Shown here: piece after piece, positions 7,391-31,253 of the stretch | Numbering within the stretch: position 1 is the first letter of the stretch | Layout: each line of letters starts with the position of its first letter | NCBI GenBank assembly: GCA_964512235.1 | Contig: CAZEGD010000003.1 | Span: forward strand, 101 to 64,100 | DNA length: 64,000 nucleotides | Reading direction: 5' to 3' | From: an uncultured archaeon | GTDB lineage: Archaea; Aenigmatarchaeota; Aenigmatarchaeia; CG10238-14; SCSR01 | The notes under the pieces: generated by a model | The model's input: only the letters and a program-made list of their open reading frames with translations | Database searches by the model: none | What the model was told of the DNA's origin: nothing | Program-made: the position numbers and the translations under genes

Positions 7391-7467
7391 TTATTAAAAC
7401 ACCTAAATTAGATTTCGTTTGCCAGAAATTTAAGTTTAAAGATTGGGCACATAATTTTATGTTTTTT

Positions 7468-7935: not shown

Positions 7936-7988
7936 AAATACCTAATAATACTTTGGATTTGGGATTAAAAATTTGATTAGAAACTGAA

Positions 7989-12838: not shown

Positions 12839-13543
12839 TTATCCTTCCCTTTTCATCCTCTGCACCAGATCGCTCAGCGCGCGCACGCTCTCTATCAGCG
12901 CAGGCAAAGTCTCCTTGAAAGCCTTCTCCAACCCAGACAATCGTATGTGTATGTCCTGCAAGCTCGTCCCCACACCTTCAACTTTCGTTATCACCTGGTT
13001 CTGCTCGCCGCTGCGGCCTTGTATTACCGTATTCAGCTGGTGCTTTATCTCTTCCATTCTCTTCTCAAGTTCTGTATAGCGGATGGCAAACTCATTCATC
13101 TGGTGCTGCACATCAGTCATTCGCTCGTTTATGGCATAATCAACATAGTCCTCAGTAGGATAGCTCTGGTAGTATTCTGATGGCAGGGACGTCTCGGGTA
13201 CTACTGGCTGCGACGGTTTTATCTGCTCCATCGTTGGCAGCATCGATGACTGCTGCGCTGGCGGGAATGATGGCTGCCTTGCATTCTGCTGCATGCCTTC
13301 CGCGGGCGTGAATGACGGCTTTTCAGCAGTATATGTTGTGACAGGCTCTCCCCTTACACCGCCCTTTAGCGTCTGCGTCAACGCCGAGTCTATCTCCTCC
13401 GGTGCAAATCCCTCTCTCCTCAACGCATCTATGACATCCGTTTCAGAGAAGCCTCGCGACATAAGTTGCTGCACTCTGTTAGTCGGTGCATATCCTTTGC
13501 CCTTTATTTTCTCCTCTTTGCCACTAAGAAAAGGTATCTTCAT
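12839..13543 (-). CDS. Coiled-coil protein with an N-terminal UBA-like helical module and a Q/P-rich linker
   Basis: N-terminus GFSETDVIDALRREGFAPEEIDSAL, a low-complexity P/Q/S linker, and a C-terminal heptad-rich region. Confidence 0.6.
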   Translation of the reverse strand: MKIPFLSGKEEKIKGKGYAPTNRVQQLMSRGFSETDVIDALRREGFAPEEIDSALTQTLKGGVRGEPVTTYTAEKPSFTPAEGMQQNARQPSFPPAQQSSMLPTMEQIKPSQPVVPETSLPSEYYQSYPTEDYVDYAINERMTDVQHQMNEFAIRYTELEKRMEEIKHQLNTVIQGRSGEQNQVITKVEGVGTSLQDIHIRLSGLEKAFKETLPALIESVRALSDLVQRMKREG

Positions 13544-13615: not shown

Positions 13616-14050
13616 TTAAACCCTTTTCCTCGTCTTCGTCATTCTGTCTTCAAGCGCGCGCTCAAGTTCGCCCTTTGTTATGAACTCCGAAGTTATGGGA
13701 TTGATAATATCTATAAATGTCTCAAGCTGCTTGACTTCATTTTTCGTTGCAGTCTTGTCAAGTCTGTTATTTATCCTAGCCACCTCATTCTCCATCGTTA
13801 TTATCCTGTCCGACACGTCTACAATCTTGTTAGATATCTTCTCCAGTTCCAGCTTCAGTTCATTCAGCTGCATGAGCACAGTCTCATCCAGGCTTCTCAT
13901 TCCATTCTCCATTCTTTCAATCTTCTGCTCCATGAAATGTATTCGTCGGGCGTTCTGGTTTATCCTCTGTATCAGCTCGGACATTACAGAATTGCTATCG
14001 CCTTTCCGCGGCTGCGACTGGAACGATTTTTGGATTTCGTCTGACGGCAT
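13616..14050 (-). CDS. Small coiled-coil protein
   Basis: 144 aa, nearly all heptad-like (IERMENGMRSLDETVLMQLNELKLELEKISNKI...). It is transcribed divergently from the pilus ATPase. Confidence 0.6.
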   Translation of the reverse strand: MPSDEIQKSFQSQPRKGDSNSVMSELIQRINQNARRIHFMEQKIERMENGMRSLDETVLMQLNELKLELEKISNKIVDVSDRIITMENEVARINNRLDKTATKNEVKQLETFIDIINPITSEFITKGELERALEDRMTKTRKRV

Positions 14051-14139
14051 GGCAATCCTCTGGATAATGATGACTACTATAAAGAATTTGTGTCGCCGTA
14101 GATAAATTTAATTAGGTATATGCAAGATGGTTGGAAAAA

Positions 14140-16380
14140 ATGGCAGTTGACTATAAAATTGAAGACGGTACAGCGAGAATAGACGCACGCAACTGGGTGA
14201 TAGAGCCAAGCATTGAGAATTCTGAGGCATGCATGGCCGTTGTCATTGACATATTGCAAGAATCGAAAAATATAGAGCGCATAGTTCTCGCGGAAGTGAG
14301 GGATGTGGAATACGACTTTGAGCAGACGCAATTGCTTGCAAGCATCGCTCGGGCACACAACAAAATATTGAATGAAGAAAAGCTGATGAGCATAGAAAAG
14401 CTCGGCCCGAGGGAGTGCTCGGTGCTGCTGCCCGCCAGGTTCAAGGAGCTGCAGTTCTTGATTCTGGAAGTCCTGCGCAAGGACCCGATAGGTGCCTACG
14501 TCAAAGTGAAGATGATGATAAACAAGGCACAGGAGAAGATGAAAAAGATGAAGATGAAACAGTGCTTCAAGCAGTACATAGATGAAGTGCTGATTCCGAT
14601 GAAAAATATACTGGAGTCTACAGAGATGATAAAGGCTGCACAGCCGTATCTACGCATCTTCAAATTCGGTGACCGCCGGATCTACAGGGAGCTGTTCAAG
14701 CCTGTGATCAGGCCAACATTCATGCTCACTCGCTACATGATCGTCCCACCAAAGGGAGGGAGGCTCATGGAAAAGTACAACATAGCAGCCAATACGACTG
14801 TAGAGATATTCAGCGTGCCAGGCAGGGTGAGGCACAGCTATTTCATAACCCCTCCAGAGTTCAGGTTGAGCGAAGAGAAGTATGCCGTGCTGGACATGGC
14901 GCGCCGGTATCTAGCAGAGCACAGGCCGAGCGAGACGGAGTTCGCAGACCCGGAGCGTGCGCGCGAGGTGTTTATGAACATAAGCCGCGACCTCATCGCT
15001 GACGTGTCAAGGTCGATGAATGTGATGCTTACTGTGAAAGAGATAGAAGAGCTCGCCGTGGTGCTGTCACGCTATACTGCAGGATTTGGTGTGCTTGAGC
15101 TGTTGCTTAGCGACGATAAGATACAGGATTTGTACATAAATTCGCCCATCGGGTTGACACCGATATATGTCTATCATTCAGATTTCGAGGAATGCATAAC
15201 AAACCTCATACCTACAAGGGAGGATGCAGAAGCTTGGGCGACCCGATTCAGGCTGTATTCTGGCAGGCCATTGGACGAAGCCAACCCAGTGCTTGACACT
15301 GAGCTGACAGTGCCTGGAGGGCGCGCACGTGTCGCAGCCATCACCCGCACACTAAGTCCTGAAGGACTGGCATTCACCCTACGCCGTCACCGCGAGAGGC
15401 CATGGACATTCCCACTTTTCATACAGAACAGGTTTATCGATCCGCTGTATGCAGGATTGATGAGTTTCATAGTCGATGGCGGCCGTGCAATATTGATAGC
15501 AGGCGGACGTAGCTCGGGGAAGACAAGCTTGCTAGGTGCGATGATGCTGGAGATATTGCGGAAGTTCAGGTTCATTGTGCAGGAAGATACTTTAGAGCTA
15601 CCTATAGTGTACATGCGAAAGCTAGGCTACAATGTCGAGCGGCTGAAGTCACGCTCCGTGATTACACAAATAGAGACTGAGCTGTCTGCTGATGAAGCTC
15701 TAAGGACAGCGCTCAGATTAGGAGATTCAGTCCTGATTCTGGGCGAAGTGCGCAGCGTAGAGGGCAAAGCATTGTTCGAAGCTATGCGCATAGGCGCGCT
15801 TGCAAATGTGGTCGCCGGTACAATACATGGTGAGTCTGCTTACGGAGTCTACGACCGTGTGGTGAATGATCTAGGAGTGCCGTCTACGAGCTTTAAAGCC
15901 ATAGATCTGATTACGATATGCAACATGCTGCACAGCCCGGACGGTCTGCATCGCTTCCGAAGAGTCGTTGCTTTGACAGAAGTGCGGAAGCACTGGAAGG
16001 ATGATCCTGGAGCAGAAGCCGGGTTTGTGAATCTCATGGAATATTCGGCAAAGGAAGACAGGATGAAGCCTACGGATACTTTGACTGACGGAGAGTCTGA
16101 GGTGCTTAATGAAATTGCAAAGCGCGTGCGTGAATGGCATGGTAGATGGGACGTAATGTGGGACAACATAATGCTGCGGACGAAGATAAAAGAGGCGATG
16201 GTGAAGTACTCTGAAAAATTCAATAGGCCAGATATGCTGGAGGCAGACTGGGTGCTTGACAGCAATGAAATGTTCCATTTGATATCCGACAAAGTGAAGA
16301 AGGAAGTCGGTGGATTGGATAGTAAGCTCATCTACAGCCGATGGGAAGATTGGTTCAAGAATAGGATAAAACAGAAGTAG
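14140..16380 (+). CDS. Type IV pilus/archaellum-family secretion ATPase (ArlI/FlaI-PilB/VirB11 superfamily) with a long N-terminal extension
   Basis: Walker A AGGRSSGKTS, Asp box IVQEDTLEL, Walker B ILGEVRSVEG, and His box GTIHGES. I placed the start at ATG 14140; the track uses an in-frame TTG at 14131. Confidence 0.9.
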   Translation: MAVDYKIEDGTARIDARNWVIEPSIENSEACMAVVIDILQESKNIERIVLAEVRDVEYDFEQTQLLASIARAHNKILNEEKLMSIEKLGPRECSVLLPARFKELQFLILEVLRKDPIGAYVKVKMMINKAQEKMKKMKMKQCFKQYIDEVLIPMKNILESTEMIKAAQPYLRIFKFGDRRIYRELFKPVIRPTFMLTRYMIVPPKGGRLMEKYNIAANTTVEIFSVPGRVRHSYFITPPEFRLSEEKYAVLDMARRYLAEHRPSETEFADPERAREVFMNISRDLIADVSRSMNVMLTVKEIEELAVVLSRYTAGFGVLELLLSDDKIQDLYINSPIGLTPIYVYHSDFEECITNLIPTREDAEAWATRFRLYSGRPLDEANPVLDTELTVPGGRARVAAITRTLSPEGLAFTLRRHRERPWTFPLFIQNRFIDPLYAGLMSFIVDGGRAILIAGGRSSGKTSLLGAMMLEILRKFRFIVQEDTLELPIVYMRKLGYNVERLKSRSVITQIETELSADEALRTALRLGDSVLILGEVRSVEGKALFEAMRIGALANVVAGTIHGESAYGVYDRVVNDLGVPSTSFKAIDLITICNMLHSPDGLHRFRRVVALTEVRKHWKDDPGAEAGFVNLMEYSAKEDRMKPTDTLTDGESEVLNEIAKRVREWHGRWDVMWDNIMLRTKIKEAMVKYSEKFNRPDMLEADWVLDSNEMFHLISDKVKKEVGGLDSKLIYSRWEDWFKNRIKQK

Positions 16381-16425
16381 CAAATCAATAAAGATATATG
16401 ACGAAAAAAAGAAATTTAATAGTAG

Positions 16426-16713
16426 ATGATTATGACTGGCAGAAAGGGTGCAATACCAATACCCTATATAATCGCCATAATTTTCGGGATAGTTGTAATT
16501 GCGATAATTGGCTACTGGTTCTTTACGACCGCCGGCGATATTGGCAGCGCTAGTCAACAAGCAGATTGTGAAACAGCATTGTTTGAATTCTGCATAAGCT
16601 GGATTAGAGAAGGAGAAGCTAATAAACCTTTTGATCATAAAGTAGTAGAAGATTGTGGACCTCTTGATATAGGTGTACCTACGTTTGCCCAATGCACAAG
16701 TGTCTATACCTAA
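16426..16713 (+). CDS. Class III signal peptide (type IV pilin-like) protein, 4 Cys
   Basis: N-terminus MIMTGRKG|AIPIPYIIAIIFGIVVIAIIGYWFF: a short basic leader, K-G, then about 22 hydrophobic residues. Confidence 0.8.
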   Translation: MIMTGRKGAIPIPYIIAIIFGIVVIAIIGYWFFTTAGDIGSASQQADCETALFEFCISWIREGEANKPFDHKVVEDCGPLDIGVPTFAQCTSVYT

Positions 16714-16789
16714 TAATTTAGGCATATCATAAACTCCTTTCAAACCAATTCTTAATACGGACAAAAGCCAAAACTATTTTTAGATATTG

Positions 16790-18742
16790 ATGGTCAGAAG
16801 AGTCTCTAGGGAATACGATGAATTCTTGCGCGGCAAAGTGGAAATCAAGCCCACTCTGTATAGCCAAGCGTGCAAATTTGCAGAGAAAATCCTGCCTATC
16901 CAACCGGGAAAGGATTTGAATAAAAGATACCAGGAAGCGATAAATTTCTCGCACTTGAATGTCACTCCAAAAGGCGCGTTTTCCCTTGCAATTCTAGCCC
17001 TGTTATTAGTCGCAATAATTCCAATAGTTTTAGCTATTCTCCTCGGTATGTTCACAATCGGCCTTGTGGCGATGGCAATGATTTTTGCCGGCGTCACATT
17101 CTACTACCTGTATGACTATCCTCTGCACCATTCCGTGATTTTCCGTATAAAGGCAAGCTCAGAGATGGTCCTAGCTATAGTCTATATGACAATAGCGATG
17201 CGCATATCTCCGAATTTGGAGAATGCAGTCAAGTTTGCAGCCCGCAGTCTTAGCGGACCACTCGCTACAGATCTAAAGCAACTCATATGGGACGTCTATA
17301 TGAGGAAATACGACTCTATGTCTGAAGCTTTGGACGCTTTCATAACCAAGTGGAAGGTCGAAAACAGGGAATTCACAGAAGCCATATACTTGATAAAGAA
17401 CTCTTCTATAGGAACCACTGCAAGAAGGGAGAGCGTGCTAGATGAGGCAGTCTCAGTCGTGCTTGAGGGTACAAAGGAGAGGATGAAGCACTACGCGCAG
17501 GATCTGAGAACACCAGTCACAATATTGAATGCGATGGGAATACTGTTGCCTCTCATAGGGCTTGTGTTTTTGCCGCTTGTAGGACTCTTTATGTCAGAGA
17601 TATTCCAGCCAGTCTTTATAATAGTGGGCTACAATGTGATACTTCCACTGTCCGTGTATTGGATGATGAAGACCACTCTTGAGAAGAGACCATATAGCTT
17701 CCACCAGCCAGACCTTTCAAGGCACCCGAAGTTCAGAAAAAAGAAGATTGACACAACACTCATCATCTCAATGCTAATTCCTCTACCCACTACGGTCTTT
17801 GGGTTCTACTATTTTATGACTATAAAAGAGATTTTCAGCAATACTCTGCTATACTGTTCGCTGATAACGCTGTCGGGAATAGTTGGTGGCATAGTATTCT
17901 ATTGCATAATGTCTACTTGGAAGAAACTGAAAATAAGGCAGGAGATTATTGAAATAGAGCAAGGATTTACTGAAGCACTGTTCCAGATTGGCAAGCAACT
18001 GCAGCGTGGTATACCTATAGAGAAAGCAATCGAAAGGTTTGTAATGAATATGAAGGACTTGAAGATTGCAAGGATGTTCGAAATGGTTCTTTACAACATA
18101 AAGACTTTTGGAATGACATTCGAGCAGGCGGTCTTCGATGAGGAAAGGGGTGCAATAAGACAATATCCGTCCAAGACCGTGGATGCCACAATGCGCGCAA
18201 TAGTCGAAATCTCCAAGAGAGGCATGAAAGTGGTCTCGAATGCGATGATATCAATATCGAGATATATGAAAGACGTGCATGTCGTGGAAGAGGACCTTAG
18301 AGACATGCTGTCCGAGACTACGTCCACTATGAACATACAAGCCCTCTTCCTAGCACCGTTGACATCTGGGATAGTGATATCGATTTCCGCAATAATGATG
18401 CAGATGCTGCTGTCGTTCAAGGGAATGCTAGAAAGCATACAGGACCAGCTGTTCGCCTCCGGCCCATCTGGGTTCATGAGCGGCGGGATACTGACGTCAG
18501 TCCTCAATATAAACAAGATGATACCTGTGCACATATTCCAGCTCATAGTGGGCATATACCTGATAGAAGTGGTAGCGATGCTCGCGATGTTTCTCAGCAA
18601 GATACAATACGGCGAAGAGAATCTGATAAGGACCTATAACATAGGCAAGATGCTCTTATTGGCTACAGTTATCTATATGCTTATCGCGTTTTCGCTCTAT
18701 TCGGTATTCACATCAATCATGCCGGTTTTAATCATGCAGTAA
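16790..18742 (+). CDS. Pilus/archaellum assembly membrane platform (ArlJ/FlaJ-TadC, T2SS-F-like)
   Basis: About 650-aa polytopic membrane protein with two cytoplasmic helical domains separated by TM clusters. It sits directly after the ATPase, which is the standard ATPase+platform pairing. Confidence 0.8.
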   Translation: MVRRVSREYDEFLRGKVEIKPTLYSQACKFAEKILPIQPGKDLNKRYQEAINFSHLNVTPKGAFSLAILALLLVAIIPIVLAILLGMFTIGLVAMAMIFAGVTFYYLYDYPLHHSVIFRIKASSEMVLAIVYMTIAMRISPNLENAVKFAARSLSGPLATDLKQLIWDVYMRKYDSMSEALDAFITKWKVENREFTEAIYLIKNSSIGTTARRESVLDEAVSVVLEGTKERMKHYAQDLRTPVTILNAMGILLPLIGLVFLPLVGLFMSEIFQPVFIIVGYNVILPLSVYWMMKTTLEKRPYSFHQPDLSRHPKFRKKKIDTTLIISMLIPLPTTVFGFYYFMTIKEIFSNTLLYCSLITLSGIVGGIVFYCIMSTWKKLKIRQEIIEIEQGFTEALFQIGKQLQRGIPIEKAIERFVMNMKDLKIARMFEMVLYNIKTFGMTFEQAVFDEERGAIRQYPSKTVDATMRAIVEISKRGMKVVSNAMISISRYMKDVHVVEEDLRDMLSETTSTMNIQALFLAPLTSGIVISISAIMMQMLLSFKGMLESIQDQLFASGPSGFMSGGILTSVLNINKMIPVHIFQLIVGIYLIEVVAMLAMFLSKIQYGEENLIRTYNIGKMLLLATVIYMLIAFSLYSVFTSIMPVLIMQ

Positions 18743-18767
18743 ATAAGATTTAGATAGGGGAATAACG

Positions 18768-18905
18768 ATGAATGGACGCAAAAGCGAAATGAACATGAAG
18801 TCGATATGGTTTCTGGTCCTGTTAATTCTACTTATCTTTCTGATAATTTTATTTTATACACTCGGCAATGAAATAATTGAGGTACTTACCTCCACCTTCG
18901 CTTAA
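18768..18905 (+). CDS. Possible 45-aa single-TM peptide (weak prepilin-like leader MNGRKS...)
   Basis: Not in the ORF track (below its size cutoff). ATG is preceded by GGGG. The peptide is MNGRKSEMNMKSIWFLVLLILLIFLIILFYTLGNEIIEVLTSTFA. Its stop lies 2 nt before the next pilin-like gene. Confidence 0.3.
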   Translation: MNGRKSEMNMKSIWFLVLLILLIFLIILFYTLGNEIIEVLTSTFA

Positions 18906-18907
18906 AA

Positions 18908-19135
18908 ATGGGGAATGATATGAAAAAAAGAAGAAAGGGAATTGCAATAGAGACTATAGTGTATTTGGTGCTTGCGATCGTGGGACTAATTGTTCTATGG
19001 GTTTTCCTTTCAGGTCTGGCCCCAGTAATCAAAACAACCGTAGAGGAGATAGTGAAGGGAATAGGCTGCAAGATATGCGAAATATTTGGGGTTGCCGGCT
19101 GGGTTCTTAGCGCATTTTGCAGGAACTGCCCATAA
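18908..19135 (+). CDS. Class III signal peptide (pilin-like) protein, 4 Cys
   Basis: MGNDMKKRRKG|IAIETIVYLVLAIVGLIVLWVFL. C-terminus CKICE...FCRNCP. Confidence 0.75.
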   Translation: MGNDMKKRRKGIAIETIVYLVLAIVGLIVLWVFLSGLAPVIKTTVEEIVKGIGCKICEIFGVAGWVLSAFCRNCP

Positions 19136-19161
19136 TAAGTAAAAGTTTCTTTGGACAAGAT

Positions 19162-19205
19162 AATCGACAGTTTTAATTCTAGGACTCGAAATAATAATTA
19201 TGGAA
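19162..19205 (+). repeat. Duplicated promoter/5' region, copy 1
   Basis: aatcgacagttttaattctaggactcgaaataataattatgga recurs at 19921-19964 with one mismatch. It includes the TTTTAAT TATA-like box and the ATG. Confidence 0.85.
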
Positions 19206-19865
19206 ATAAGAATGTCTGGGAGTAAAGGGGGAGGGATACCGACCAGGTGGATTGTCTTGGGATTTTTAGGTGTACTCGTCATATTGGGCATTTATGTAGT
19301 CTACGCGAAAGGTCATGAAATGTCTGGAGGTCTATTCGGTTTTTGGGACGACCTTTTTGGAGGAGGAGGACAAACGGGAGGAAAGACGGAGTTCGAGGCT
19401 GCCATAGAATGTGCTTATTACAGGTGCAAAGAGAACTGCCCGTATGCAATAACTAAAGCCGGAGCTGTCGGTGATTTTAATTGCCTAGATTATTGCAAAG
19501 AAGAATGGACTGATGACAATAGACGAATTTGTGATGGACATCCTATCGAAATACAGTTAAGTAGTGGTGAAACTATAGAGGCCAGTTGGTGGCGCCAGAT
19601 TACAGGGGGCTCCAACAATGCACTATCTCGATCGGACTGTATAGTGGACAGAATATATAGGTATAGCAATCTCAACCTAATTTTTCCAATAGACTCCTCA
19701 GAATGCAACATAGAAAGTGCTGGTGTAGATGGAATAATCTACAGCAGTTGCAAGTTGACATCAGATGGTACTTTTTACATATGGAGTGAAAAACACTATT
19801 GGCCAAATGAATGTACAGTTGGTGCTACTTGTATAGCTACCATAATTTGCGACAGGCAACCGTGA
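19200..19865 (+). CDS. Class III signal peptide protein, Cys-rich (12 Cys), paralog A
   Basis: MEIRMSGSKGGG|IPTRWIVLGFLGVLVILGIYVVY. It shares EFEAAIECAYYRCKENCPY with the next gene. Confidence 0.75.
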   Translation: MEIRMSGSKGGGIPTRWIVLGFLGVLVILGIYVVYAKGHEMSGGLFGFWDDLFGGGGQTGGKTEFEAAIECAYYRCKENCPYAITKAGAVGDFNCLDYCKEEWTDDNRRICDGHPIEIQLSSGETIEASWWRQITGGSNNALSRSDCIVDRIYRYSNLNLIFPIDSSECNIESAGVDGIIYSSCKLTSDGTFYIWSEKHYWPNECTVGATCIATIICDRQP

Positions 19866-19920
19866 AATATTTTGAGAATATAAATTTAGTCGATTTAGAC
19901 TCAATGATATGATAATTAAA

Positions 19921-19964
19921 AATCGACAGTTTTAATTCTAGAACTCGAAATAATAATTATGGAT
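19921..19964 (+). repeat. Duplicated promoter/5' region, copy 2
   Basis: See 19162-19205. The copies are 759 bp apart, which equals the tandem gene duplication unit. Confidence 0.85.
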
Positions 19965-20636
19965 ATAGAAACACCTAGAGGTAAAGGTGTCGCAATGAGA
20001 ACTATAGTTTTAGTCGCAATCGGCGTCGGCGGCTTGTTATTCGGTTTTATTATGCTTACAGGAATCGGAGATGCTAGGGAAAATATAATTGACATCCTCC
20101 TTGGTTTAGGTAGCTCTGCTAAAGGACCATCAAAATTGGAAGTGGCAATAGAATGTGCTTATTACAGATGTAAAGAGGGATGTCCACATGGTGCTGAGAA
20201 TGTTGAAATTATCGATGGTTTTGAGTGTTTAAAATTCTGCGACGAAGCAGTAGTCAATAGTGTTGATAGCAATGGAGACAAGAAAATATGCGGCTCCGAG
20301 TCCAGAGATTATCCGGTAACAATCTCGATAGAGGCAAGTTATGTGCATACTAACACGATTGATGATGCTGGCTCCGAGCTGAGCTCGATCGTAGAATTTA
20401 ACGAAGAAACCGTAGGCTGTGAAAACTTCAGGCCGTCATATGCATATCTATATGTAACTAGGTCAATGATAGTCGACGGAAAAACAGAGATCTGTCCTAC
20501 ACGCAATATGGCCTATGGTGGATACAACTGCTACGATAATGTTAAAGTAGCCGCAGGAGATTACTCTATTTGGGTACATAACATCTATGTTCTTGGCGTA
20601 TACGTCGGTACATCGCCTATAGTCTGCATGGGATAG
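19959..20636 (+). CDS. Class III signal peptide protein, Cys-rich (10 Cys), paralog B
   Basis: MDIETPRGKG|VAMRTIVLVAIGVGGLLFGFIML, followed by KLEVAIECAYYRCKEGCPH. Confidence 0.75.
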   Translation: MDIETPRGKGVAMRTIVLVAIGVGGLLFGFIMLTGIGDARENIIDILLGLGSSAKGPSKLEVAIECAYYRCKEGCPHGAENVEIIDGFECLKFCDEAVVNSVDSNGDKKICGSESRDYPVTISIEASYVHTNTIDDAGSELSSIVEFNEETVGCENFRPSYAYLYVTRSMIVDGKTEICPTRNMAYGGYNCYDNVKVAAGDYSIWVHNIYVLGVYVGTSPIVCMG

Positions 20637-20737
20637 TTCCATAAAAGTTTCTACAACTTTAGTGGAAATTAATAATTTTATTCAAGACTAACCTTTAAAA
20701 AGAAGGAATTGAAAATAAGATATAGGTGATAGGTAGA

Positions 20738-21061
20738 ATGATGAAAAAAGGAATAGCAGTTCCTTACATTATTGCCCTTATTCTGGGAATAGTAGTTGTA
20801 GCTCTGCTAGGTTACTGGTTCTTCATACTAGGTGGAACTTTCACCGGTAGAGCTTCAATCACAGAGTGCCAGACCAAATTGAGTACATACTGTGCTGCAT
20901 TCGCAGCTTCAGGCTATGACACAGCAGCGTTCGATCCCTTTACTAGTAGCACTTGCCCAGCAAGCGGTACAGTAGACGCCCCTGAATGTTGCTCACACTA
21001 TAGCTCTCTAATGACTGGTGCTAGCTGGACAGCCACTTGCACGAATTTAATAGGGCAGTAA
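20738..21061 (+). CDS. Class III signal peptide (pilin-like) protein, 6 Cys; paralog of 16426
   Basis: MMKKG|IAVPYIIALILGIVVVALLGYWFF. GGTGA lies 7 nt upstream of ATG 20738; the track starts at an in-frame GTG at 20726. Confidence 0.8.
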   Translation: MMKKGIAVPYIIALILGIVVVALLGYWFFILGGTFTGRASITECQTKLSTYCAAFAASGYDTAAFDPFTSSTCPASGTVDAPECCSHYSSLMTGASWTATCTNLIGQ

Positions 21062-21075
21062 AATAAAGTGGAAAT

Positions 21076-21282
21076 ATGAAAGGTAGTATACCAGTTCCTT
21101 ATTTAATAGCCATAATACTAGCTGTAGTCGTTATAGTTGTGCTTGTCTACATGTATCTTTCTGAAAGCGGATTATTCTCTCAAGTAATTGATGAGAAATA
21201 TTGCCAGGCAAAGTGTATGGAATGCAAAGCGACAGGGGGTTCAATGCCACCTGAGTGCATTGATTATCCTTGTGACCTGTAG
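21076..21282 (+). CDS. Class III signal peptide (pilin-like) mini-protein, 5 Cys
   Basis: MKG|SIPVPYLIAIILAVVVIVVLVYMYL. The mature part is only about 40 aa and contains CQAKCMECK...ECIDYPC. Confidence 0.75.
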   Translation: MKGSIPVPYLIAIILAVVVIVVLVYMYLSESGLFSQVIDEKYCQAKCMECKATGGSMPPECIDYPCDL

Positions 21283-21332
21283 CTGTTGACAACCAGACTA
21301 ACATCTAAATAAAATAAAAAGAAATATAGTTT

Positions 21333-21650
21333 ATGAAGGTCAAGCCAGCTACTACGGATTCTAAAGGCGTAGCAGTTCACACAATCGTAATAGTTATGAT
21401 ATTCGGGATTATGATGCTAATCCTTCTACTGGTATTTTCAGAATATCTTGGAATACAGAACTGCGAGGCTGCAAGGATGGCCTGCTCGACTGCTAGGGCG
21501 TCACACTGCTTCAGTTGGTGGAAAAACGACAATAGCTTTAGCTCTGGCGAGCCTGATTGGGAGAACATAAACGACTGCGACGATACCGGATTGGTGAGTT
21601 GTGACAAACCCGACAGGTCAGAATGCTTAGACTTGATATTCAGCGATTAA
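21333..21650 (+). CDS. Class III signal peptide (pilin-like) protein, 6 Cys
   Basis: MKVKPATTDSKG|VAVHTIVIVMIFGIMMLILLLVF. Confidence 0.7.
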   Translation: MKVKPATTDSKGVAVHTIVIVMIFGIMMLILLLVFSEYLGIQNCEAARMACSTARASHCFSWWKNDNSFSSGEPDWENINDCDDTGLVSCDKPDRSECLDLIFSD

Positions 21651-21706
21651 ATTTCTAGGTTTTGAAATGAAAAACAATTAATTAAACCAAAGAGTAATTT
21701 TTAATT

Positions 21707-22162
21707 ATGAGCCAAAAGGGAGACGCTACCATAAGCGTTCTCGGTACAGCTGTAATTATGGCCATCATGGTCATCTTTGTTGCAAACATCGTCCCAGATT
21801 ATGTAGTGTCTGCATTCGAGTTTATGAGCTCATCCTCGGCCGAGGTAGTCTCTAGGAATTTAGCAGGTTTTATAACAATAAGTGCGGCAGCTCCGAATGA
21901 AATCAGCATCGATTACTTTGCATCTAAAAGCAGTGAGTACAATGTGAAGATTGAGAACAGAGTTATAAATCTAGACCTGTTGTCCGCGAGCTTCGGCGCG
22001 AAAGGAGGTTCCATCACAAAAGCGGGTATAGACTCTATCTGCTATTATACGGACACTATCTGCAGATTCGACGGGGTAAATCACTTCACCATAAAGAAAT
22101 GGTCGGATGAGGACGGTTACATTTGTAATGTCAACGGTGAGATGAGTCTGAATGAAGATTGA
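21707..22162 (+). CDS. Class III signal peptide (pilin-like) protein
   Basis: MSQKG|DATISVLGTAVIMAIMVIFVANIV. Overlaps the next gene by 11 nt. Confidence 0.7.
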   Translation: MSQKGDATISVLGTAVIMAIMVIFVANIVPDYVVSAFEFMSSSSAEVVSRNLAGFITISAAAPNEISIDYFASKSSEYNVKIENRVINLDLLSASFGAKGGSITKAGIDSICYYTDTICRFDGVNHFTIKKWSDEDGYICNVNGEMSLNED

Positions 22163-22808
22163 CTGCTCTAAAAGAAGTAAAGGAATCGGAGATTTAGTAC
22201 CCTATGCGATTATGGCTTTACTGATTATAGGTGTAGTTGTAATCTTCTACATTCTCATGATGACAAAGTTTTTGGATATTAGAACAATTGTAATGGAAGC
22301 CGGTGTCGAAAGACATACCCTAAATTTGGCCCAAGTATTGCTGAGCTATGACAAGCTCGTGTATGTGGAAGAAGACTATTTCAGCATACATAGAGGTATA
22401 TTTGTCAAAGAAAAGCTCGATGAGCAATTCAAAGACGGTAGCGAACTTACAAATGAACTCGGCTATCCAGATTCTGTAATCCTATTGTATGTAAAAGATT
22501 TCGATGCTAACAAGGAATGGGCTCTAAGATACAAAGGCCCTTTCAACTTGGAAGGTTCTAAAGCAGCAAGTTTCATAGAATGTCTGAACGAGAAGACAGA
22601 ATTCGATGTCATACTTTTGTTTCAAATGATACTCTCACCTATTTCACATGTTGGCCCATGGGACTATTACACCATCGCTGAGTGCACATCATCGTTCGCT
22701 TCAGACTATGGAACCTCTGTTAGGAGGTTCCCAGTCGCAATCAAAGATGGAAATGAAATACACGCTGGTATATTGGTAGTTACAATTGACGAATGGACTT
22801 TGATCTAA
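22152..22808 (+). CDS. Class III signal peptide (pilin-like) protein
   Basis: MKIDCSKRSKG|IGDLVPYAIMALLIIGVVVIFYILMM. Overlaps the next gene by 16 nt. Confidence 0.7.
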   Translation: MKIDCSKRSKGIGDLVPYAIMALLIIGVVVIFYILMMTKFLDIRTIVMEAGVERHTLNLAQVLLSYDKLVYVEEDYFSIHRGIFVKEKLDEQFKDGSELTNELGYPDSVILLYVKDFDANKEWALRYKGPFNLEGSKAASFIECLNEKTEFDVILLFQMILSPISHVGPWDYYTIAECTSSFASDYGTSVRRFPVAIKDGNEIHAGILVVTIDEWTLI

Positions 22809-23293
22809 TGAAATACAATAATTTGAAAATTAAAGGGAGAAAGGGAATTGCACCCATTATCATAATCCCAATACTTTTAGCACTGATTACATTCTCAGCA
22901 GTAATCATTGCAGTAATGCCAATCATATTCCTCAAAGTCAACCTAGTCCAGATGATTACATTTGAATATAACTACAACAACGCGCAGCTGGCTCTGAATA
23001 CATTGCTCTCTCTAACGAAGACAGACACGACAGACGGTCAGGTAAAGCCTGTCTATAAAATTATCTCAGAGTATGTGTCATTGCCGCAAAAGCCAAATAT
23101 ACTTTTTCTGAGGGTCGAGCTTAACAGGATGGTAAATAATGGAATATTCAAGTGCTACAAGCTCACATCCCAGACAGCTGGCGAGCTGGCAAGGGGAAGT
23201 TGCGATCCCACTAGTGATGGTGAATATTACAAAGCAGTTTCACCTGTTTTAACACCTACATTCGTAGATAGACTGGAGTTGATGGTGGATTGA
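22793..23293 (+). CDS. Class III signal peptide (pilin-like) protein
   Basis: ...LKIKGRKG|IAPIIIIPILLALITFSAVIIAVMPIIF. Its stop overlaps the TTG start of the giant gene (ATTGA). Confidence 0.7.
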   Translation: MDFDLMKYNNLKIKGRKGIAPIIIIPILLALITFSAVIIAVMPIIFLKVNLVQMITFEYNYNNAQLALNTLLSLTKTDTTDGQVKPVYKIISEYVSLPQKPNILFLRVELNRMVNNGIFKCYKLTSQTAGELARGSCDPTSDGEYYKAVSPVLTPTFVDRLELMVD

Positions 23294-26200
23294 GAGCTAG
23301 AGCAAAGAAAAGAAGCAAAGGCCTAATAGTGGCGGCCATACTCGTCATAGCAGCTATTGCTATCGCTGGTGCAGGCATTTACTACTCCAATTTCATCTAT
23401 AGAGTCCAGACTACAGTGGAGATAGTGAAAGAGGCCACAATTGTAGAAGCGATAAACTATGTAGAGATGCTGAAGATAGGGCTACGTAACGCTGTAGGAT
23501 ATTCTGTCTATAGGGCATCGGATGACGTTTTGACTCTGGGCGGAATCTGCGAGCACAGCCTGCAATCCTCAGAGTCGGGATATTGCACAGAAGATTGCAA
23601 GATACCGGCAGGCACTCCAACATTCGAGTGTACTCCCTGGTGGAAGGTCCATGATAAAATATACGCCCCCACGAAAGGGGAATTCATGGAATATATGACT
23701 AACAGAACGCTCCAGAACTTTGAAGGATATGCGAATATGCTCGAAGTCCAAGACCTTGAGGTACCGAACTACTGTCCCCCTCTGGGAAGAGACTGTAGCG
23801 GGTGCTTGACAGATTCAGAATGTCCAGAAGGCTGCAACGGCTTAAGAGAGACTGGCGGAGTTGCCACCATAGAATCAACAAAAAGTTTAGACCCCGAAAT
23901 AAAAACAAAGATGGAGAGCAAGAATGACTATTTGAAGAATGAAAAAATAGAATACGAACGCGACTTCTTCACAGTAGCTGACAATTCATCTTTCACGGAC
24001 ACCGTCAAAGCCACTACTTTTTCACTGTTTGACTTTGCAAGAGACAAATTTATAGAGAATGACTATATCTCCCAAGTATTTGATCAGGGAGACGAGCCCA
24101 TGCCGAACACATGGTGTGCCATGACAGCAGATAACTACTGTGATGTAACCTCGGATTGTCGTCAGGACACAAACAACTGTTGGAATGGTGACTGTTGCTG
24201 TAAAGGCATCTATTACGGCAACGTATGTTTAGATGAATTGCCAAACTGTGAAGCAGGACTGGATCAATACTGTAAAAGAGACTATACAGGCACGACTTGC
24301 ATGGAAGCAGACTCTAATTGCGACAATACAATATCAGCGAAGGAATATTACAACTATACTGTGAAAGGACAGTTGTCGATAGACGAAGATGAGACTGATG
24401 CATATGGAAATAAATTCAGGGTAAAAACGGCTCTTGATGGATGCATAGAAGTTGGCACTGAATCTACACAGACATACAGTGAAATCGTGGAAGTGAATTG
24501 GTATGACTACGATCCTGTCGCAGACCAAGCAGACTGTGACGTGATTACAGCAGAAGGGTGTGGATGCGGAGAATACTGCACTGCATCTGATCCGGAATGC
24601 GGGGATTGTATAGGGATAACTCCTGGCATCTTCGATGGACCGTGTCCATGGGAGACGCTGAGCTGTCCAGATGAATGTTGTGGTCTGGAATGGGAATGTA
24701 TAGAATGGGAAGAACCAGGTCCGTGTGAAGAGCCTGAAGAAACAGATATTGCCGTAGAAGCTAACTTTCAATATCTCGTGCTTGCAGAAAGCCCTGTCTG
24801 TACAGATTCAGATGGCGGTGCCAATAACCTAGTCTATGGTTGCTGTGAATATGGTACAGACACTTATTGTGACTATTGTGATGGTACCAATGTTGTCGAA
24901 TACTATTGTTCACCTGTGATTAACCCAACACATTGCGGCTCTATAACTCACGGCTGTGTAGGGTGGTATGGTGCTGGTGCTACCTGCTCAGGTGGGAAAT
25001 GTATAGAACCTACGACCACAACCACAACTACACTTCCCCCTGTCTGTACAGATTCAGATGATTGTCCAGCCATAGATACAGATGGAGGCTATAACCTATA
25101 TGAGAAAGGTACTTGTTCATGGAGAATTTGTGATAGTGATCATAACTGTAAAGTTACTTACACTCAAACAGATTCTTGTATCAGTAGCACTAAAGTTTAT
25201 GAAATGCGTCCAGGCTCTCCAGTTAACTATTGCGATGGAGAAACAGAAAATTGCCCTTCTGGTACCATATGTTCAGATGGCGCTTGTGTTGAAACAACTA
25301 CAACAACCACCACGACTACCACAACACTTCCAGCGACATGTATAAATCATAATGAATGCTCTCAAGCGTGTACAGATCTATGTCCTTATATGGTATACGG
25401 TTGCTGCTACGGCTGTATGCTAGGTCAATGTATAGGTGGTACATGCCAGTGCATAGAGAAACCCACATATTGCTCAGGCAGTCCTATTTCTCAAGTCGGC
25501 AGTCAATGTATAGTTGGTCCAGTTTGCTCTGATATAGGATTAGGCACACCTTCTGTCAGTCCCTCAACCCCAACAGCTGGCAGCACATTCCAAATATCAT
25601 GCCCTGTCACTCAGGTAGGAGCAGACTGTATAGCAGCATATGCCAATGATATGAGCTCTAGGTGTAATTACACTCATTGGTCAGGCAATAACGCTGTTTT
25701 TAACTGTCCAGGTCTAGCAGCAGGTACTTATACTGCAAGGTGTACTTCCCAGACAGAAACCCCCAGCAATTGTTGTTATGATACAACAACAACATCTTAT
25801 GCTACAATAACACCTACACACGACATAGTAGTCGGTGTCACACAGGGCTCTGGAGCGGTAAATGTCGCTATAAATGGTATCCCAGTCCAGACTGTCACTG
25901 AAGCATCAACAGCCACAATCACGTTCGAGCACGGAGATAGTGCATCATTTGAAGCAATCCCATCATCAGGTTATACGCTAGAGAGCTATTGCGGCTGGGT
26001 CACTGATGGTGAGGTTGTATGTTGCACACCAGATGAGTGCCCTTCACCACTCATAAGACCAATTTGGGAAAGTGGTGGACTATATGTTAACTTTGTTGCA
26101 AGTGTAACATGTACTAAACATGAAATTAGGTTGGAATGTAGGGATTCTATCTGCGGCTTCCCAGGCTGTTGTAAAAAAGCCGCTTATATGAAAGATGTCA

Positions 26201-26709
26201 AGTGCGAATATGACTATGTGGGTACTGCTAATTTGAGCGTAGAAGTGTCGGATATGGCACACAAGTACCCGATAGGCACCGAAACAAAGAACCTGAAACT
26301 GCCTTTCTACATAGCTTCTGGCAATACATTAGAAGAAGATTTGCTATGCGGTGCTTCTACGACGGACGACGATCCGAATACGGAAGAAGTTGAATTCCCA
26401 CAATGGCAAGACTGCAAAGAACCCTATAAACATGAAATAACGGTTAGTGTTTCTAGCGGATTTGGAACAGTTGACATCTATAGAAATGACGAATTCATCG
26501 GAAAAGCCACCGAAGTAATATCGTTTATAGTCCAATTCAGCTCCGAAGACATTGCAAAATTTGTAGCGACTCCCTCAACAGGGTATAGTTTTGAGAGCTG
26601 GTGCGGAGATGATGATTGCTGTTCGCCACCGGACCCAGAATGCGGCCCTACCATTTCAAGGACAATTAATGCAGATGGTAATCTATATGCCAACTTCGAG
26701 TCAGTTTAG
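23290..26709 (+). CDS. Giant (1139 aa) Cys-rich surface protein with a pilin-like class III N-terminus, poly-Thr linkers and two C-terminal B-repeat-like modules (putative pilus-borne adhesin)
   Basis: TTG start; RARAKKRSKG|LIVAAILVIAAIAIAGAGIYY. Thr7 run at 25012-25032 and Thr11 run at 25294-25326. Repeated PVCTDSDGG/PVCTDSDDC Cys modules. Internal duplication between 25819-26103 and 26431-26706. Confidence 0.85.
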   Translation: MRARAKKRSKGLIVAAILVIAAIAIAGAGIYYSNFIYRVQTTVEIVKEATIVEAINYVEMLKIGLRNAVGYSVYRASDDVLTLGGICEHSLQSSESGYCTEDCKIPAGTPTFECTPWWKVHDKIYAPTKGEFMEYMTNRTLQNFEGYANMLEVQDLEVPNYCPPLGRDCSGCLTDSECPEGCNGLRETGGVATIESTKSLDPEIKTKMESKNDYLKNEKIEYERDFFTVADNSSFTDTVKATTFSLFDFARDKFIENDYISQVFDQGDEPMPNTWCAMTADNYCDVTSDCRQDTNNCWNGDCCCKGIYYGNVCLDELPNCEAGLDQYCKRDYTGTTCMEADSNCDNTISAKEYYNYTVKGQLSIDEDETDAYGNKFRVKTALDGCIEVGTESTQTYSEIVEVNWYDYDPVADQADCDVITAEGCGCGEYCTASDPECGDCIGITPGIFDGPCPWETLSCPDECCGLEWECIEWEEPGPCEEPEETDIAVEANFQYLVLAESPVCTDSDGGANNLVYGCCEYGTDTYCDYCDGTNVVEYYCSPVINPTHCGSITHGCVGWYGAGATCSGGKCIEPTTTTTTTLPPVCTDSDDCPAIDTDGGYNLYEKGTCSWRICDSDHNCKVTYTQTDSCISSTKVYEMRPGSPVNYCDGETENCPSGTICSDGACVETTTTTTTTTTTLPATCINHNECSQACTDLCPYMVYGCCYGCMLGQCIGGTCQCIEKPTYCSGSPISQVGSQCIVGPVCSDIGLGTPSVSPSTPTAGSTFQISCPVTQVGADCIAAYANDMSSRCNYTHWSGNNAVFNCPGLAAGTYTARCTSQTETPSNCCYDTTTTSYATITPTHDIVVGVTQGSGAVNVAINGIPVQTVTEASTATITFEHGDSASFEAIPSSGYTLESYCGWVTDGEVVCCTPDECPSPLIRPIWESGGLYVNFVASVTCTKHEIRLECRDSICGFPGCCKKAAYMKDVKCEYDYVGTANLSVEVSDMAHKYPIGTETKNLKLPFYIASGNTLEEDLLCGASTTDDDPNTEEVEFPQWQDCKEPYKHEITVSVSSGFGTVDIYRNDEFIGKATEVISFIVQFSSEDIAKFVATPSTGYSFESWCGDDDCCSPPDPECGPTISRTINADGNLYANFESV

Positions 26710-28763
26710 GCATACAGCTTTTCTGGTTCTCTACAGCAGCAAGCGGTTTTTGATTCACCATCAACTACGACATTATTGCAGAAATACTCATCTATATTTT
26801 CTGTATCAAAACACTTATCACCACAGGACTCTTCAGATCTGCAATAATAAGGACATCCTGGACAGAATTCCCTATTGATTGGAACGGAATTTCTCCACCC
26901 AAAGAAATTCTTCCCATCTAAATATCTATAAGTTAGATTTCCAACAAAAGAGAATGATTTGTAACTCTGTACATCAACTATAGCACTTTCAGGATCTATT
27001 TCTAGATTGCAAACAAAGCTCCTCGAACCCTCTAAGAACTTCTTTTGTCCACCTTTGTAAAAATCATCTTCTGATATTGTAATCTGATTTCCATCACGTG
27101 TACAATCCCCACTCACACCAGTCAACCACGACGGAAACCCACCTTCAAAGCTTCCTAAGGCTTCTATCGTTATAGCAGCTTTATCATCTATATCTATCGG
27201 TTTGTATTTACCAGTCTCCTTACCATTCACAACTTCAATTGTCATCCTTATTTCATTTCTTCTCATCTCTTCAAGGATATAAGGTGAATCAAAATCGATT
27301 ATCAAGTCAACTGGCCCGTCTGTCGGAATTTCATCGGACAGATGTTTTATAGCCCCCTGTCTAGAAGCGATATACTCATCGTCTTCAGTATTAGCAAGAA
27401 CCAAAGTTCTTGTATGCACGACTGACGAATCGTATCTCAGTTTTATTTCAAACTCCAGTTGTTGTACACCTTGATCCTCACATGGAAATGTGTTGAAATA
27501 GGAAAGCTGCGACACACCATTTATAACTGAATAATCGTTTGGGCAAGGGTCGTATTGCCAGTAGTTTATGCTACACTCTGTACATCCACCTAATGTACTA
27601 CTACTACTGTACCCATCAATTATACACACCTTATACCCACCTGCGAAATAAGATGCAAAAATCTTTAGTTCATCTTCTGGTCCCAACGTACATTCATTTT
27701 CATCATCACATATATCTATAGTCTGAGCCTCGTAAAGGAAGGGGTTTGCATTAGACCTCCTTCCAATAGTTCTATTAACATAGGCCCATACATGGGTTTG
27801 TCTCAATTCTACATTTTCTCTATCGTCTCCATTACCAATCACTATATTGCTAAAGACTAAACCACCACCTTCAGTATCCTCGTCATTCAAGTTTTTGATA
27901 TAGATAGGCAACACGTAGTCCGACTTCACATTATCTGTATAACCATATGGTGTAGGAATTTCGTAAGTTGTTTTTCCTTCTCTGAACCTTTTGTTACCTA
28001 TCTCTATTCCCAGTGTGTCATAAGACTTGTAACCTGCATATGAGATACCATCCTCAACTATTTGAGGGCAGAACATTGGATTGTCAGATCCTATGAGCGA
28101 ACAGAAAAGAGCTTGCGGATTACCCAAACTCGATATAAGCGATGATATATCATACCCAGACACCATTCCCAATGAGAATACTCCCACCGCTACAATTATT
28201 AAAAGCATTATAGGAGTGCCTATTTGCCACTCCCATCTTTTTGTTGAAATGATTAACACAAGACCTATCAGAAGACCTGAAATGATGAGAATCCAATGAC
28301 CTACAGAAAAGAAAAGGAAAGGTGTTAATAAAATGTCTGCAAGGAATGGAAACTGTTTATCTAAGAAACTAAAAATTGGATTGTATAACAAGAACAGTGA
28401 AGCAATTGAAATCCCAGATGAGACTACAAATGTTATACCATTTTTTAATATTTTGCCAATTTTTGTAAGTTGAATTTCAGGTTTCTCTAAATTTTCAATA
28501 TTAGCTCCACAATTTTTACATTTTTTAGATTCTCTTGGATTGCCCGTACCACAATTAGGACAAATCTTTTGAAAAGACCGATCCTTTACTTTACCATAAG
28601 CTTCTTTACCTTTCTCTTTGGCTTTTCCACCCCTTTCCTTGGCCTTCCCCCATTTTTCTTTTAGCCAATCATGTTTACCTTTTTTTTCACGGCCTAACCC
28701 TTGCATCCCAGCGGCTATTTTTTCTTCCTGCTCCTTTGTATATTCTTTTTTCTCTTTAGCCAT
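26706..28763 (-). CDS. Zinc-ribbon / multi-TM / large Cys-containing ectodomain protein (685 aa)
   Basis: K-rich N-terminus (GKAKERGGKAKEKGKEAYGKVKD), CPNCG...CKNCG zinc ribbon, about 4 TM segments, then about 460 aa ending in CPGCPYYCRSEESCGDKC...ACCC. Its stop codon overlaps the stop of 23290..26709. Confidence 0.75.
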   Translation of the reverse strand: MAKEKKEYTKEQEEKIAAGMQGLGREKKGKHDWLKEKWGKAKERGGKAKEKGKEAYGKVKDRSFQKICPNCGTGNPRESKKCKNCGANIENLEKPEIQLTKIGKILKNGITFVVSSGISIASLFLLYNPIFSFLDKQFPFLADILLTPFLFFSVGHWILIISGLLIGLVLIISTKRWEWQIGTPIMLLIIVAVGVFSLGMVSGYDISSLISSLGNPQALFCSLIGSDNPMFCPQIVEDGISYAGYKSYDTLGIEIGNKRFREGKTTYEIPTPYGYTDNVKSDYVLPIYIKNLNDEDTEGGGLVFSNIVIGNGDDRENVELRQTHVWAYVNRTIGRRSNANPFLYEAQTIDICDDENECTLGPEDELKIFASYFAGGYKVCIIDGYSSSSTLGGCTECSINYWQYDPCPNDYSVINGVSQLSYFNTFPCEDQGVQQLEFEIKLRYDSSVVHTRTLVLANTEDDEYIASRQGAIKHLSDEIPTDGPVDLIIDFDSPYILEEMRRNEIRMTIEVVNGKETGKYKPIDIDDKAAITIEALGSFEGGFPSWLTGVSGDCTRDGNQITISEDDFYKGGQKKFLEGSRSFVCNLEIDPESAIVDVQSYKSFSFVGNLTYRYLDGKNFFGWRNSVPINREFCPGCPYYCRSEESCGDKCFDTENIDEYFCNNVVVDGESKTACCCREPEKLYA

Positions 28764-31246: not shown

Positions 31247-31253
31247 TTTCTCA

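Follow-up and report, generated by a model that had tools for sequence, protein, structure and literature searches.

Do twelve neighbouring archaeal genes for mostly small, cysteine-rich proteins with a near-uniform Lys-Gly junction encode the subunits of a type IV filament and, if they do, of what kind? The genes occupy positions 16426–26709 of a 64-kb stretch of contig CAZEGD010000003.1 (the window, to which all coordinates refer unless a relative is named), and had been described from the sequence alone as a prepilin-like series (the original prediction). The region is probably the pilin-rich part of a chromosomal archaeal type IV pilus (T4P)-like locus, Cys-rich and equipped with a candidate tip adhesin, that is conserved across Aenigmatarchaeota, a lineage of DPANN archaea. 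The sequences covered were the 64-kb window and, for relatives, the stretches around the orthologous ATPase locus with ±10-kb flanks. An archaeal signal recognition particle (SRP) RNA at 50938–51212 marks the window as archaeal.

Gene models and class III signals

Fourteen closely spaced genes lie on the + strand between 14131 and 26709, encoding an assembly ATPase, a polytopic platform protein and twelve prepilin-like proteins. All eleven N-termini quoted in the original prediction were located, in genes starting at 16426, 18908, 19200, 19959, 20726, 21076, 21333, 21707, 22152, 22793 and 23290, and the series is real: 16426–26709 holds eleven + strand genes with a K-G junction and a twelfth (18768–18905) with K-S. 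Gene models for six products (107, 68, 105, 151, 218 and 166 aa) are backed by independent calls on identical short contigs from other samples, and the 1139-aa product, with its TTG start, is already on the database record.

Each K-G gene encodes a short basic leader followed by a hydrophobic segment of about 20–28 residues. The published rule for archaeal class III signals places G, A or S at −1 and a charged residue at −2, with known sites such as KG|Q in Epd pilins, KG|IS in UpsB and KA|IS in UpsA (PMC4371748). All 12 window proteins fit this rule (11 K-G, 1 K-S). A [KR]G pair followed by a hydrophobic 20-mer begins 10 of 12 chosen + strand open reading frames (ORFs) in 16400–26709, the eleventh K-G gene (18908–19135) having been excluded from this count by the non-overlap filter, compared with 3 of 70 ORFs elsewhere in the window. 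Of these three N-termini, one belongs to an ordinary Sec signal peptide. Another, at 50086–50880 on the − strand, encodes a 264-aa protein with a class-III-like start (MRRG|FDLSIEKLLILIV) and a Lon_C proteolytic domain.

To extend the comparison to the relatives, the junctions of 133 ORFs from 22 loci were surveyed, all lying downstream of the platform gene, starting with a hydrophobic segment, and either homologous or positionally equivalent. Residues −2/−1 were KG in 87, KA in 11, KS in 4 and RG in 2, so that KG, KA and KS together account for 102 of the 133 across unrelated families, and the K-G motif is the sole feature common to families that otherwise have no detectable similarity. Since it matches the published processing rule, the motif is read as a mark of membership among prepilins and not as an anomaly. 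The lineage-specific traits are the strong preference for Lys-Gly and a conserved Pro/Tyr (family F5) or His/Thr (subfamily F5b) early in the mature part.

Gln at +1, the requirement of the peptidase EppA, was found in none of the 12 window proteins and at only 5 of 113 sites across loci; an EppA-dependent system of Epd type, whose pilins in most cases have Glu at +5 as well, was rejected. Two relatives encode 209-aa proteins upstream of the ATPase (L010, 5272–6583; L013, 6448–7077) that start KG|QT, with Gln at +1 as in EppA-type substrates, and the window has none of these.

Assembly ATPase and platform protein

The gene at 14131–16380 (+) encodes a 749-aa assembly ATPase of FlaI/GspE/CpaF (VirB11-superfamily) type, whose translation probably begins at the ATG of codon 4. 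It matches Pfam T2SSE (PF00437) at 4e-11 and, among NCBIfam models, TadA at 2.4e-34 and FlaI at 8.8e-34, both scores lying under the family (equivalog) cut-offs (117 bits for FlaI, where the cut-off is 550). Its closest match in the PDB is afGspE from Archaeoglobus (2oap, 3.5e-24), followed by CpaF (4.6e-19) and FlaI (4.6e-15). An N-terminal extension of ~200 aa has no detectable relatives. These sequence matches place the protein in the GspE/FlaI/CpaF secretion-ATPase family.

The polytopic protein at 16787–18742 (+; 651 aa, ~9 transmembrane (TM) segments), taken alone, has no match in Pfam, NCBIfam or the PDB, and its family was read from its relatives. An exhaustive phmmer search returned 956 representative clusters at E ≤ 1e-3, and 19 of 41 sampled relatives match T2SSF (PF00482; best 5e-9). 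In the PDB, the family profile best matches the cytoplasmic domain of GspF (E 0.01), through the motif 'GiPlEkAl', and the N- and C-terminal halves gave a marginal repeat signal (hhalign E 0.016). Because of the relatives' T2SSF matches and the GspF match, the protein is assigned, by homology, as a divergent platform of PilC/TadC/FlaJ (T2SSF) type.

An ATPase gene upstream, a T2SSF platform and synteny in ~20 Aenigmatarchaeota genomes identify the region as an archaeal type IV filament locus. The proposal that the class III proteins belong to such a locus is thereby borne out, as the genes for the secretion ATPase and the T2SSF platform stand in the same cluster.

Conservation of the locus

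Orthologues of the ATPase (56–78% identity) were found in 21 species-level genomes, all labelled Aenigmatarchaeota or uncultured/unclassified archaeon, with sources that include hot springs, a cold seep and lake sediment. All ORFs of these loci were clustered, with one further locus (L025) added, and a shared order emerged: paralogues of a membrane protein family (F0), one or two divergently transcribed coiled-coil proteins (F1), the ATPase, the platform and the run of K-G genes. In several relatives the 3′ edge is formed by a convergent gene for a protein with a Zn-ribbon, 3 TM segments and an ectodomain. Beyond the pilus locus, the window and several relatives carry housekeeping genes including AMP phosphorylase and, where the contig reaches, form III RuBisCO. 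This conserved chromosomal setting points to a stable feature of the phylum, and a mobile island was ruled out by the synteny with the genes for AMP phosphorylase, RuBisCO and ribose-1,5-bisphosphate (R15P) isomerase.

The closest relatives (L004, L005, L009 and L025) also keep a fixed order of pilin-like genes, namely an F12 mini-pilin, F16 (~70 aa), one or two F2a, two or three F5 of 'PxPY' type, one F5b of 'HT' type, and a block of F6, F2b, F9 and a large protein. Cluster look-ups returned no names for any homologue.

Small pilin-like families

One F5 gene of PxPY type (16426–16713, +; 95 aa, 4 Cys, RKG|AIPIPYII) lies between the ATPase and platform genes. Further downstream, all on the + strand, follow the candidate major pilin at 20726–21061 (107 aa from the ATG at 20738, 6 Cys, KKG|IAVPYIIALILGIVVVALLGYWFF), a truncated F5 paralogue at 21076–21282 (68 aa, 5 Cys, MKG|SIPVPYLI) and a member of the F5b subfamily at 21333–21650 (105 aa, 6 Cys, DSKG|VAVHTIVI). 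The truncated paralogue is as small as first described: after the leader MKG and an H-domain of ~25 aa, the head measures ~40 aa and holds 5 Cys. In an alignment of 26 database clusters with the window paralogues, the N-terminal KG-IAVPYIIALILGIVVVALLGYWFF hardly varies; in a head that is variable elsewhere, C44 and C52 are present in every sequence and C84 and C101 in ≥90%. An AlphaFold2 model of F5 (predicted local distance difference test (pLDDT) 79) has an N-terminal helix at residues 8–35 and a small three-helix head, in which C44 and C52 share the first helix of the head and the next two contain C84 and C101, a predicted spacing that would allow helix-stapling disulfides. As a small protein with a near-invariant assembly helix that is present in three or four copies at the locus, F5 is likely the major pilin and is the best candidate for that role.

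Directly after the platform gene, 18768–18905 (+; 45 aa, comprising leader, H-domain and ~15 aa; RKS|EMNM) is the orthologue of the 'KKG|DVERY...' mini-pilins that occupy the same place in relatives. The next gene, 18908–19135 (+; 75 aa, 4 Cys, RRKG|IAIETIVY), stands where relatives have F16 (KG|VSGK...), and was not linked to that family by BLAST despite the shared position.

Two F2a paralogues follow, at 19200–19865 (+; 221 aa, 217 aa in the database call; 12 Cys, SKGGG|IPTRWIVL) and 19959–20636 (+; 225 aa, 10 Cys, RGKG|VAMRTIVL). For the 12-Cys protein, a word-indexed homologue search returned only the protein itself and a profile query only 3 proteins; orthologues were found in L004 and L005. 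Across 9 homologues at 21–43% identity, 7 of the 13 invariant columns are Cys (motif AIxCxYYRCxxxC...C..C...ICxxxxxxxP), and the family profile has no match in the PDB. These proteins may be alternative or minor subunits. A 38-nt stretch directly upstream of both ATGs (19162–19199 and 19921–19958) differs at a single position, reading AATCGACAGTTTTAATTCTAG[G/A]ACTCGAAATAATAATT, and includes a TATA-like TTTTAATT ~25 nt upstream of the ATG. The shared stretch points to a tandem duplication that included a promoter-like region, and its placement suggests leaderless transcripts.

Terminal four-gene block and giant protein

The series ends, on the + strand, with F6 (21707–22162; 151 aa, 3 Cys, QKG|DATISVLG), F2b (22152–22808; 218 aa, 2 Cys in the mature part, RSKG|IGDLVPYA), F9 (22793–23293; 166 aa, 2 conserved Cys, GRKG|IAPIIIIP) and a giant prepilin-like protein (23290–26709; 1139 aa, 90 Cys, RSKG|LIVAAILV). 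Successive genes overlap by 11, 16 and 4 nt, in agreement with the overlaps first reported. The TTG start of the giant protein overlaps the upstream stop (TTGA), and the 4-nt overlap between F9 and the large protein recurs in L004 and L005. The block is kept together even where it is inverted (L012, L018). A conserved, tightly packed block fits the suggestion that these four genes form a minor-pilin or tip module.

The first ~390 aa of the giant protein are common to orthologues of 437–454 aa, and the C-terminal addition consists of ~750 residues of lineage-specific Cys-rich modules, with poly-Thr linkers at residues 575–581 and 669–679 and InlB-B-repeat-like domains, one by Pfam match and a second copy by eye. 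No match to the PDB was found by sequence. The protein is a candidate tip adhesin, and a giant, modular, Cys-rich extension is what would be expected of a diversifying tip adhesin in an organism that presumably lives attached to a host.

By analogy, the block resembles the four-protein priming/tip complexes of bacterial type II secretion systems (T2SS) and T4P. GspH-I-J-K, and FimU-PilV-W-X with PilY1, are likewise encoded by four adjacent, often overlapping pilin-like genes ending in the largest subunit, an arrangement that would suggest a complex of fixed stoichiometry that primes assembly, caps the filament and carries an adhesin at the tip. In contrast to the bacterial complexes, to which no sequence or structural similarity was detected, the putative adhesin here has its own pilin-like N-terminus.

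Cysteine content and conservation

Cys makes up 5.5% of the pilin-like proteins in the window versus 0.94% of the other proteins, and 3.1% versus a background of 0.85% across loci. Counts along the eleven K-G genes are 4, 4, 12, 10, 6, 5, 6, 3, 3, 2 and 90; one of the 3 Cys encoded at 22152–22808 sits in the leader, leaving 2 in the mature part, which is the figure given in the original prediction. Among 113 Cys-containing proteins from all loci, 89 have an even count. Cys columns are the most conserved columns within families, and F9 and F2b keep one conserved pair each.

Because the positive-inside rule places the heads outside the cytoplasm, disulfides are the most economical reading of this pattern, and structural disulfides in the pilin-like heads are likely. 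The earlier claim of extensively disulfide-bonded pilins thus holds for the conservation of Cys positions and their mostly even numbers, which favour disulfides; the bonding itself we infer. That such pilins would be unusual for archaea is half right. Almost all components of the Thermoproteales subsystem 4E have multiple conserved Cys (Makarova et al. 2016, PMC4858521), and a Pyrobaculum pilin with Cys bonds appears in a 2026 preprint re-surveying archaeal type IV filament systems, so that both set a precedent. The Cys-rich character is shared by L005, which comes from a cold seep, and by L020, which comes from lake sediment, and this argues that the trait is not simply thermophilic and that, for these DPANN lineages, heat stability is an insufficient explanation.

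Proposed assembly and evidence against it

In the reading that we consider most probable, an adhesive T4P-like system, filaments would be assembled by a hexameric ATPase of FlaI/GspE/CpaF type and a T2SSF platform from twelve proteins with class III signals, each starting with a basic leader that ends in Lys-Gly (in one case Lys-Ser) at −2/−1, ahead of a hydrophobic helix of 20–28 residues. Once inserted through Sec, they would be cut after the Gly by a PibD-type Peptidase_A24 encoded away from the locus. F5 proteins, with heads of ~40–70 aa that carry four conserved Cys and are predicted to be helical in the one paralogue modelled, would be the likely major subunits, and the Cys-rich F2a proteins alternative or minor ones. 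F6, F2b, F9 and the giant protein would form a priming/tip complex, on which the giant protein would display a modular, Cys-rich, Thr-linked adhesin, presumably for attachment to host cells or surfaces. The mostly paired cysteines would form disulfides that stabilize very small extracellular domains.

Several results weigh against this scheme. Genes for Peptidase_A24, DsbA/DsbB, VKOR and thioredoxin-fold proteins were not found in the scanned window ORFs, which for the peptidase agrees with the original prediction, and none of these candidates lies in the relatives' ±10-kb flanks. Because prepilin peptidases are commonly unlinked to pilus loci, the absence of one from 64 kb is uninformative. 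Peptidase_A24 (PF01478) is present in 21 of 23 Aenigmarchaeota metagenome-assembled genomes (MAGs), and FlaI and FlaJ in all but one of the 23, and DsbB (arCOG06168/COG1495) occurs in 10, under half of them (Li et al. 2021, PMC8407114 supplement). It is unlikely that the peptidase is lacking throughout the phylum. The relatives' habitats (cold seep, lake sediment, hot springs) are anoxic and reducing, and the formation of extracellular disulfides there needs explaining; in two proteins, moreover, the number of Cys in the mature part is odd (5 and 3). The pilin-like proteins gave no Pfam pilin or archaellin match, only chance-level ones (PsbJ, DUF2768; E > 0.005), Foldseek found nothing in the PDB that resembles the F5 model, and the AlphaFold2 model of F2a (the 12-Cys pilin, from four sequences) reached a pLDDT of 36 and is unusable. 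Finally, most sites appear not to fit the stricter hydrophobic pattern of FlaFind at +1 to +4, because positions +3 to +5 hold Pro, His, Arg or Glu.

Alternative explanations

The alternative that survives best, although improbable, is a genuine type IV filament that is not mainly adhesive, such as a secretion pseudopilus, a machine for DNA uptake or exchange, or a bindosome-like scaffold, in which the Cys-rich proteins would be cargo-binding or structural pseudopilins. Pilus and pseudopilus are indistinguishable by sequence, the repertoire of subunits is very large and diverse (12 genes), the closest solved relative of the ATPase is afGspE, and the pseudopilus tips of T2SS (GspH-K) typically come from a terminal block of four genes as well. 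A further point in its favour is that DPANN archaea must import host material (PMC8407114). Searches of the locus proteins showed no substrate-binding, nuclease, DNA-binding, secretin-like or channel component, however, while the InlB-B-repeat-like and Thr-linker modules of the giant protein are typical of adhesins, and the conserved, multi-copy, small F5 looks like a fibre-forming major pilin.

That the leaders are uncleaved Sec-type signal anchors, tethering Cys-rich surface proteins in the membrane beside an ATPase/platform pair that builds no filament from them, is very unlikely. Such anchors need no invariant Gly after Lys at the boundary of the n- and h-regions, yet KG, KA or KS stands there in the large majority of the surveyed junctions, and the near-invariant 28-residue H-domain of F5 is a hallmark of helix packing in a filament core. 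Strict synteny with the assembly ATPase and T2SSF platform in >20 genomes, and the presence of Peptidase_A24 in nearly all of the published phylum genomes, argue in the same direction. Anchors would account for the lack of a peptidase gene in the window, for the Pro, His or Arg at +3 to +5 of several sites, which is atypical of characterized archaeal pilins, and for orthologues without K-G, such as P0028 and P0029 with the N-terminus 'VES|TAKIV'.

The least probable alternative, by a shade, is that the conserved Cys serve chiefly as ligands of metals (Zn, Fe, Fe-S), or in thioether or other cross-links, within metal-stabilized or redox-active domains, which would suit anoxic, often sulfidic habitats that disfavour disulfides, the sparse occurrence of DsbB in the phylum and the likeness of CxxxxCxxxC (F2a) and CxxxCxxC (the 68-aa protein) to metal-binding knuckles, but is opposed by the mostly even Cys counts, the spread of the four F5 Cys over separate predicted head helices, unlike a single compact knuckle, the lack of conserved His, Asp or Glu partners in the F5 and F2a alignments, and the precedent of disulfides in archaeal pili.

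Comparison with known systems

Archaeal adhesive T4P (Sulfolobus Aap/Ups, Haloferax PilA, Methanococcus Epd; Makarova, Koonin & Albers 2016) have the same ATPase and platform pair followed by class III genes, with the prepilin peptidase likewise encoded elsewhere. The present locus differs from them in that none of its twelve subunits belongs to a known Pfam pilin family, in its high Cys content, in the unmatched ATPase extension, in a platform below Pfam detection and in the lack of Gln at +1; nor are the F0 array and the F1 coiled-coil pair part of described archaeal T4P systems. Subsystem 4E of Thermoproteales (Pyrobaculum/Vulcanisaeta, including the P. arsenaticum pilus) likewise combines large signal-peptide proteins, putative adhesins or minor pilins, with diverse small minor pilins (PMC4858521; 2026 preprint). 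The organisms that have it are hyperthermophilic Thermoproteota, in which the pilin genes often lie apart from those for the machinery, whereas the present organism is a DPANN archaeon; the likeness is one of description.

Loci of the same kind have been noted before. FlaI/TadC loci of DPANN archaea were described as surrounded by unrecognizable signal-peptide proteins, probably diverse pilins, in 'dark-matter' islands (Makarova, Wolf & Koonin 2019), and FlaI/FlaJ with 'adjacent archaellum homologs' were reported for Aenigmarchaeota (Li et al. 2021, PMC8407114); these accounts offer only a one-paragraph prediction and a presence/absence table, respectively. The literature searched holds no account of these families, the uniformity of K-G, the conservation of Cys, the terminal block, the giant adhesin or the F0 and F1 neighbours.

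Two other classifications were rejected. For an archaellum remnant, as the published FlaI/FlaJ label would imply, no archaellin, FlaH or FlaF/G match was found among the locus proteins at E ≤ 0.1 in Pfam or NCBIfam. For a Tad/Flp (type IVc) system, a single 651-aa platform gene stands in place of the pair TadB and TadC, the G|xxxxEY site of Flp subunits does not occur, and the ATPase is no closer to CpaF than to archaeal GspE.

Neighbouring genes

Upstream on the − strand, five tandem F0 paralogues (5596–8708) encode small polytopic membrane proteins of 155–239 aa with the motif GFF.F.LPF...A.FYG.L.K.KIFG. F0 arrays adjoin the ATPase locus in most related loci, and the family has no convincing Pfam or PDB relative, with a weak DUF2070 match in only 4 of 21 members; its putative link to the pilus is one of synteny. 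In L012, two paralogous proteins of ~270 aa (15356–16955, −) start with KG and an H-domain followed by four more TM segments, and this polytopic pair with class-III-like N-termini lies within that relative's pilin block. F0 proteins, or the 5-TM proteins of L012, were considered as divergent prepilin peptidases and rejected, as they have no conserved Asp/GxGD motifs and no A24 matches; the L012 proteins themselves begin like prepilins.

Divergent from the ATPase gene, two coiled-coil proteins of 234 and 144 aa (12839–13543 and 13616–14050, −) belong to F1, and one or both occupy this place in almost all related loci; an accessory or regulatory role in the cytoplasm is possible for them. The convergent gene at 26706–28763 (−) encodes a 685-aa membrane protein, possibly an accessory component, that combines a Lys-rich N-terminus and a Zn-ribbon with 3 TM segments and an ectodomain rich in Cys. 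In architecture and position, though with no detectable similarity in sequence, it matches family F13 of the relatives; it is also reminiscent of Zn-ribbon membrane proteins that have been linked to the bindosome loci of Sulfolobus.

A paralogous pair at 10977–11861 and 11975–12826 (+) encodes proteins without a Pfam match that start with a Sec-type signal peptide (…VALA|Q), span the membrane several times and end in a charged coiled coil. Genes at 29696–33286 (−) for AMP phosphorylase, form III RuBisCO and an IF-2B-family protein, the last read here as ribose-1,5-bisphosphate isomerase, make up the archaeal AMP salvage pathway and are syntenic with the pilus locus in L025. Four tRNA genes are unusually long (86–118 nt; 1330–1417, 34933–35050, 48025–48118 and 56086–56173), one with an anticodon that ARAGORN could not assign, and archaeal tRNA introns are the probable cause; the window also has a gene for a tRNA-splicing endonuclease (42562–43143). 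The gene at 59301–61601 (+) encodes the likely S-layer protein, a product of 766 aa that has a Sec signal peptide and matches S_layer_C; a membrane GT2 glycosyltransferase follows at 62377–63609.

Biological implications

The kind of system is known, and the locus is a lineage-wide variant, distinctive mainly by its conserved Cys and its giant adhesin-like protein; it overturns nothing. A further-reaching claim, that this is a previously unclassified type IV filament subsystem found throughout Aenigmatarchaeota, is put forward tentatively and as a whole is rather doubtful. It would combine a fibre of disulfide-stapled mini-pilins, whose small helical head, predicted for one F5 paralogue, would be a fold without a match in the PDB; accessory modules of its own, namely the F0 array, the F1 coiled-coil pair and the Zn-ribbon membrane protein; oxidative folding outside the cytoplasm in strictly anaerobic, genome-reduced archaea; and a hypervariable giant tip that would be the symbiont's determinant of host recognition.

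Current pilin models in Pfam and NCBIfam miss the pilins of a whole phylum, and the platform protein is detectable only through its relatives. The use of Cys in exported proteins, in relatives from cold anoxic sediment as well as hot springs, raises the question of how extracellular disulfides are formed or kept intact in genome-reduced anaerobes. For the mostly unknown molecules through which DPANN archaea, living attached to host cells, make contact, the locus offers candidates: a likely major pilin, a four-protein tip module and a giant, diversifying adhesin that could set host range.

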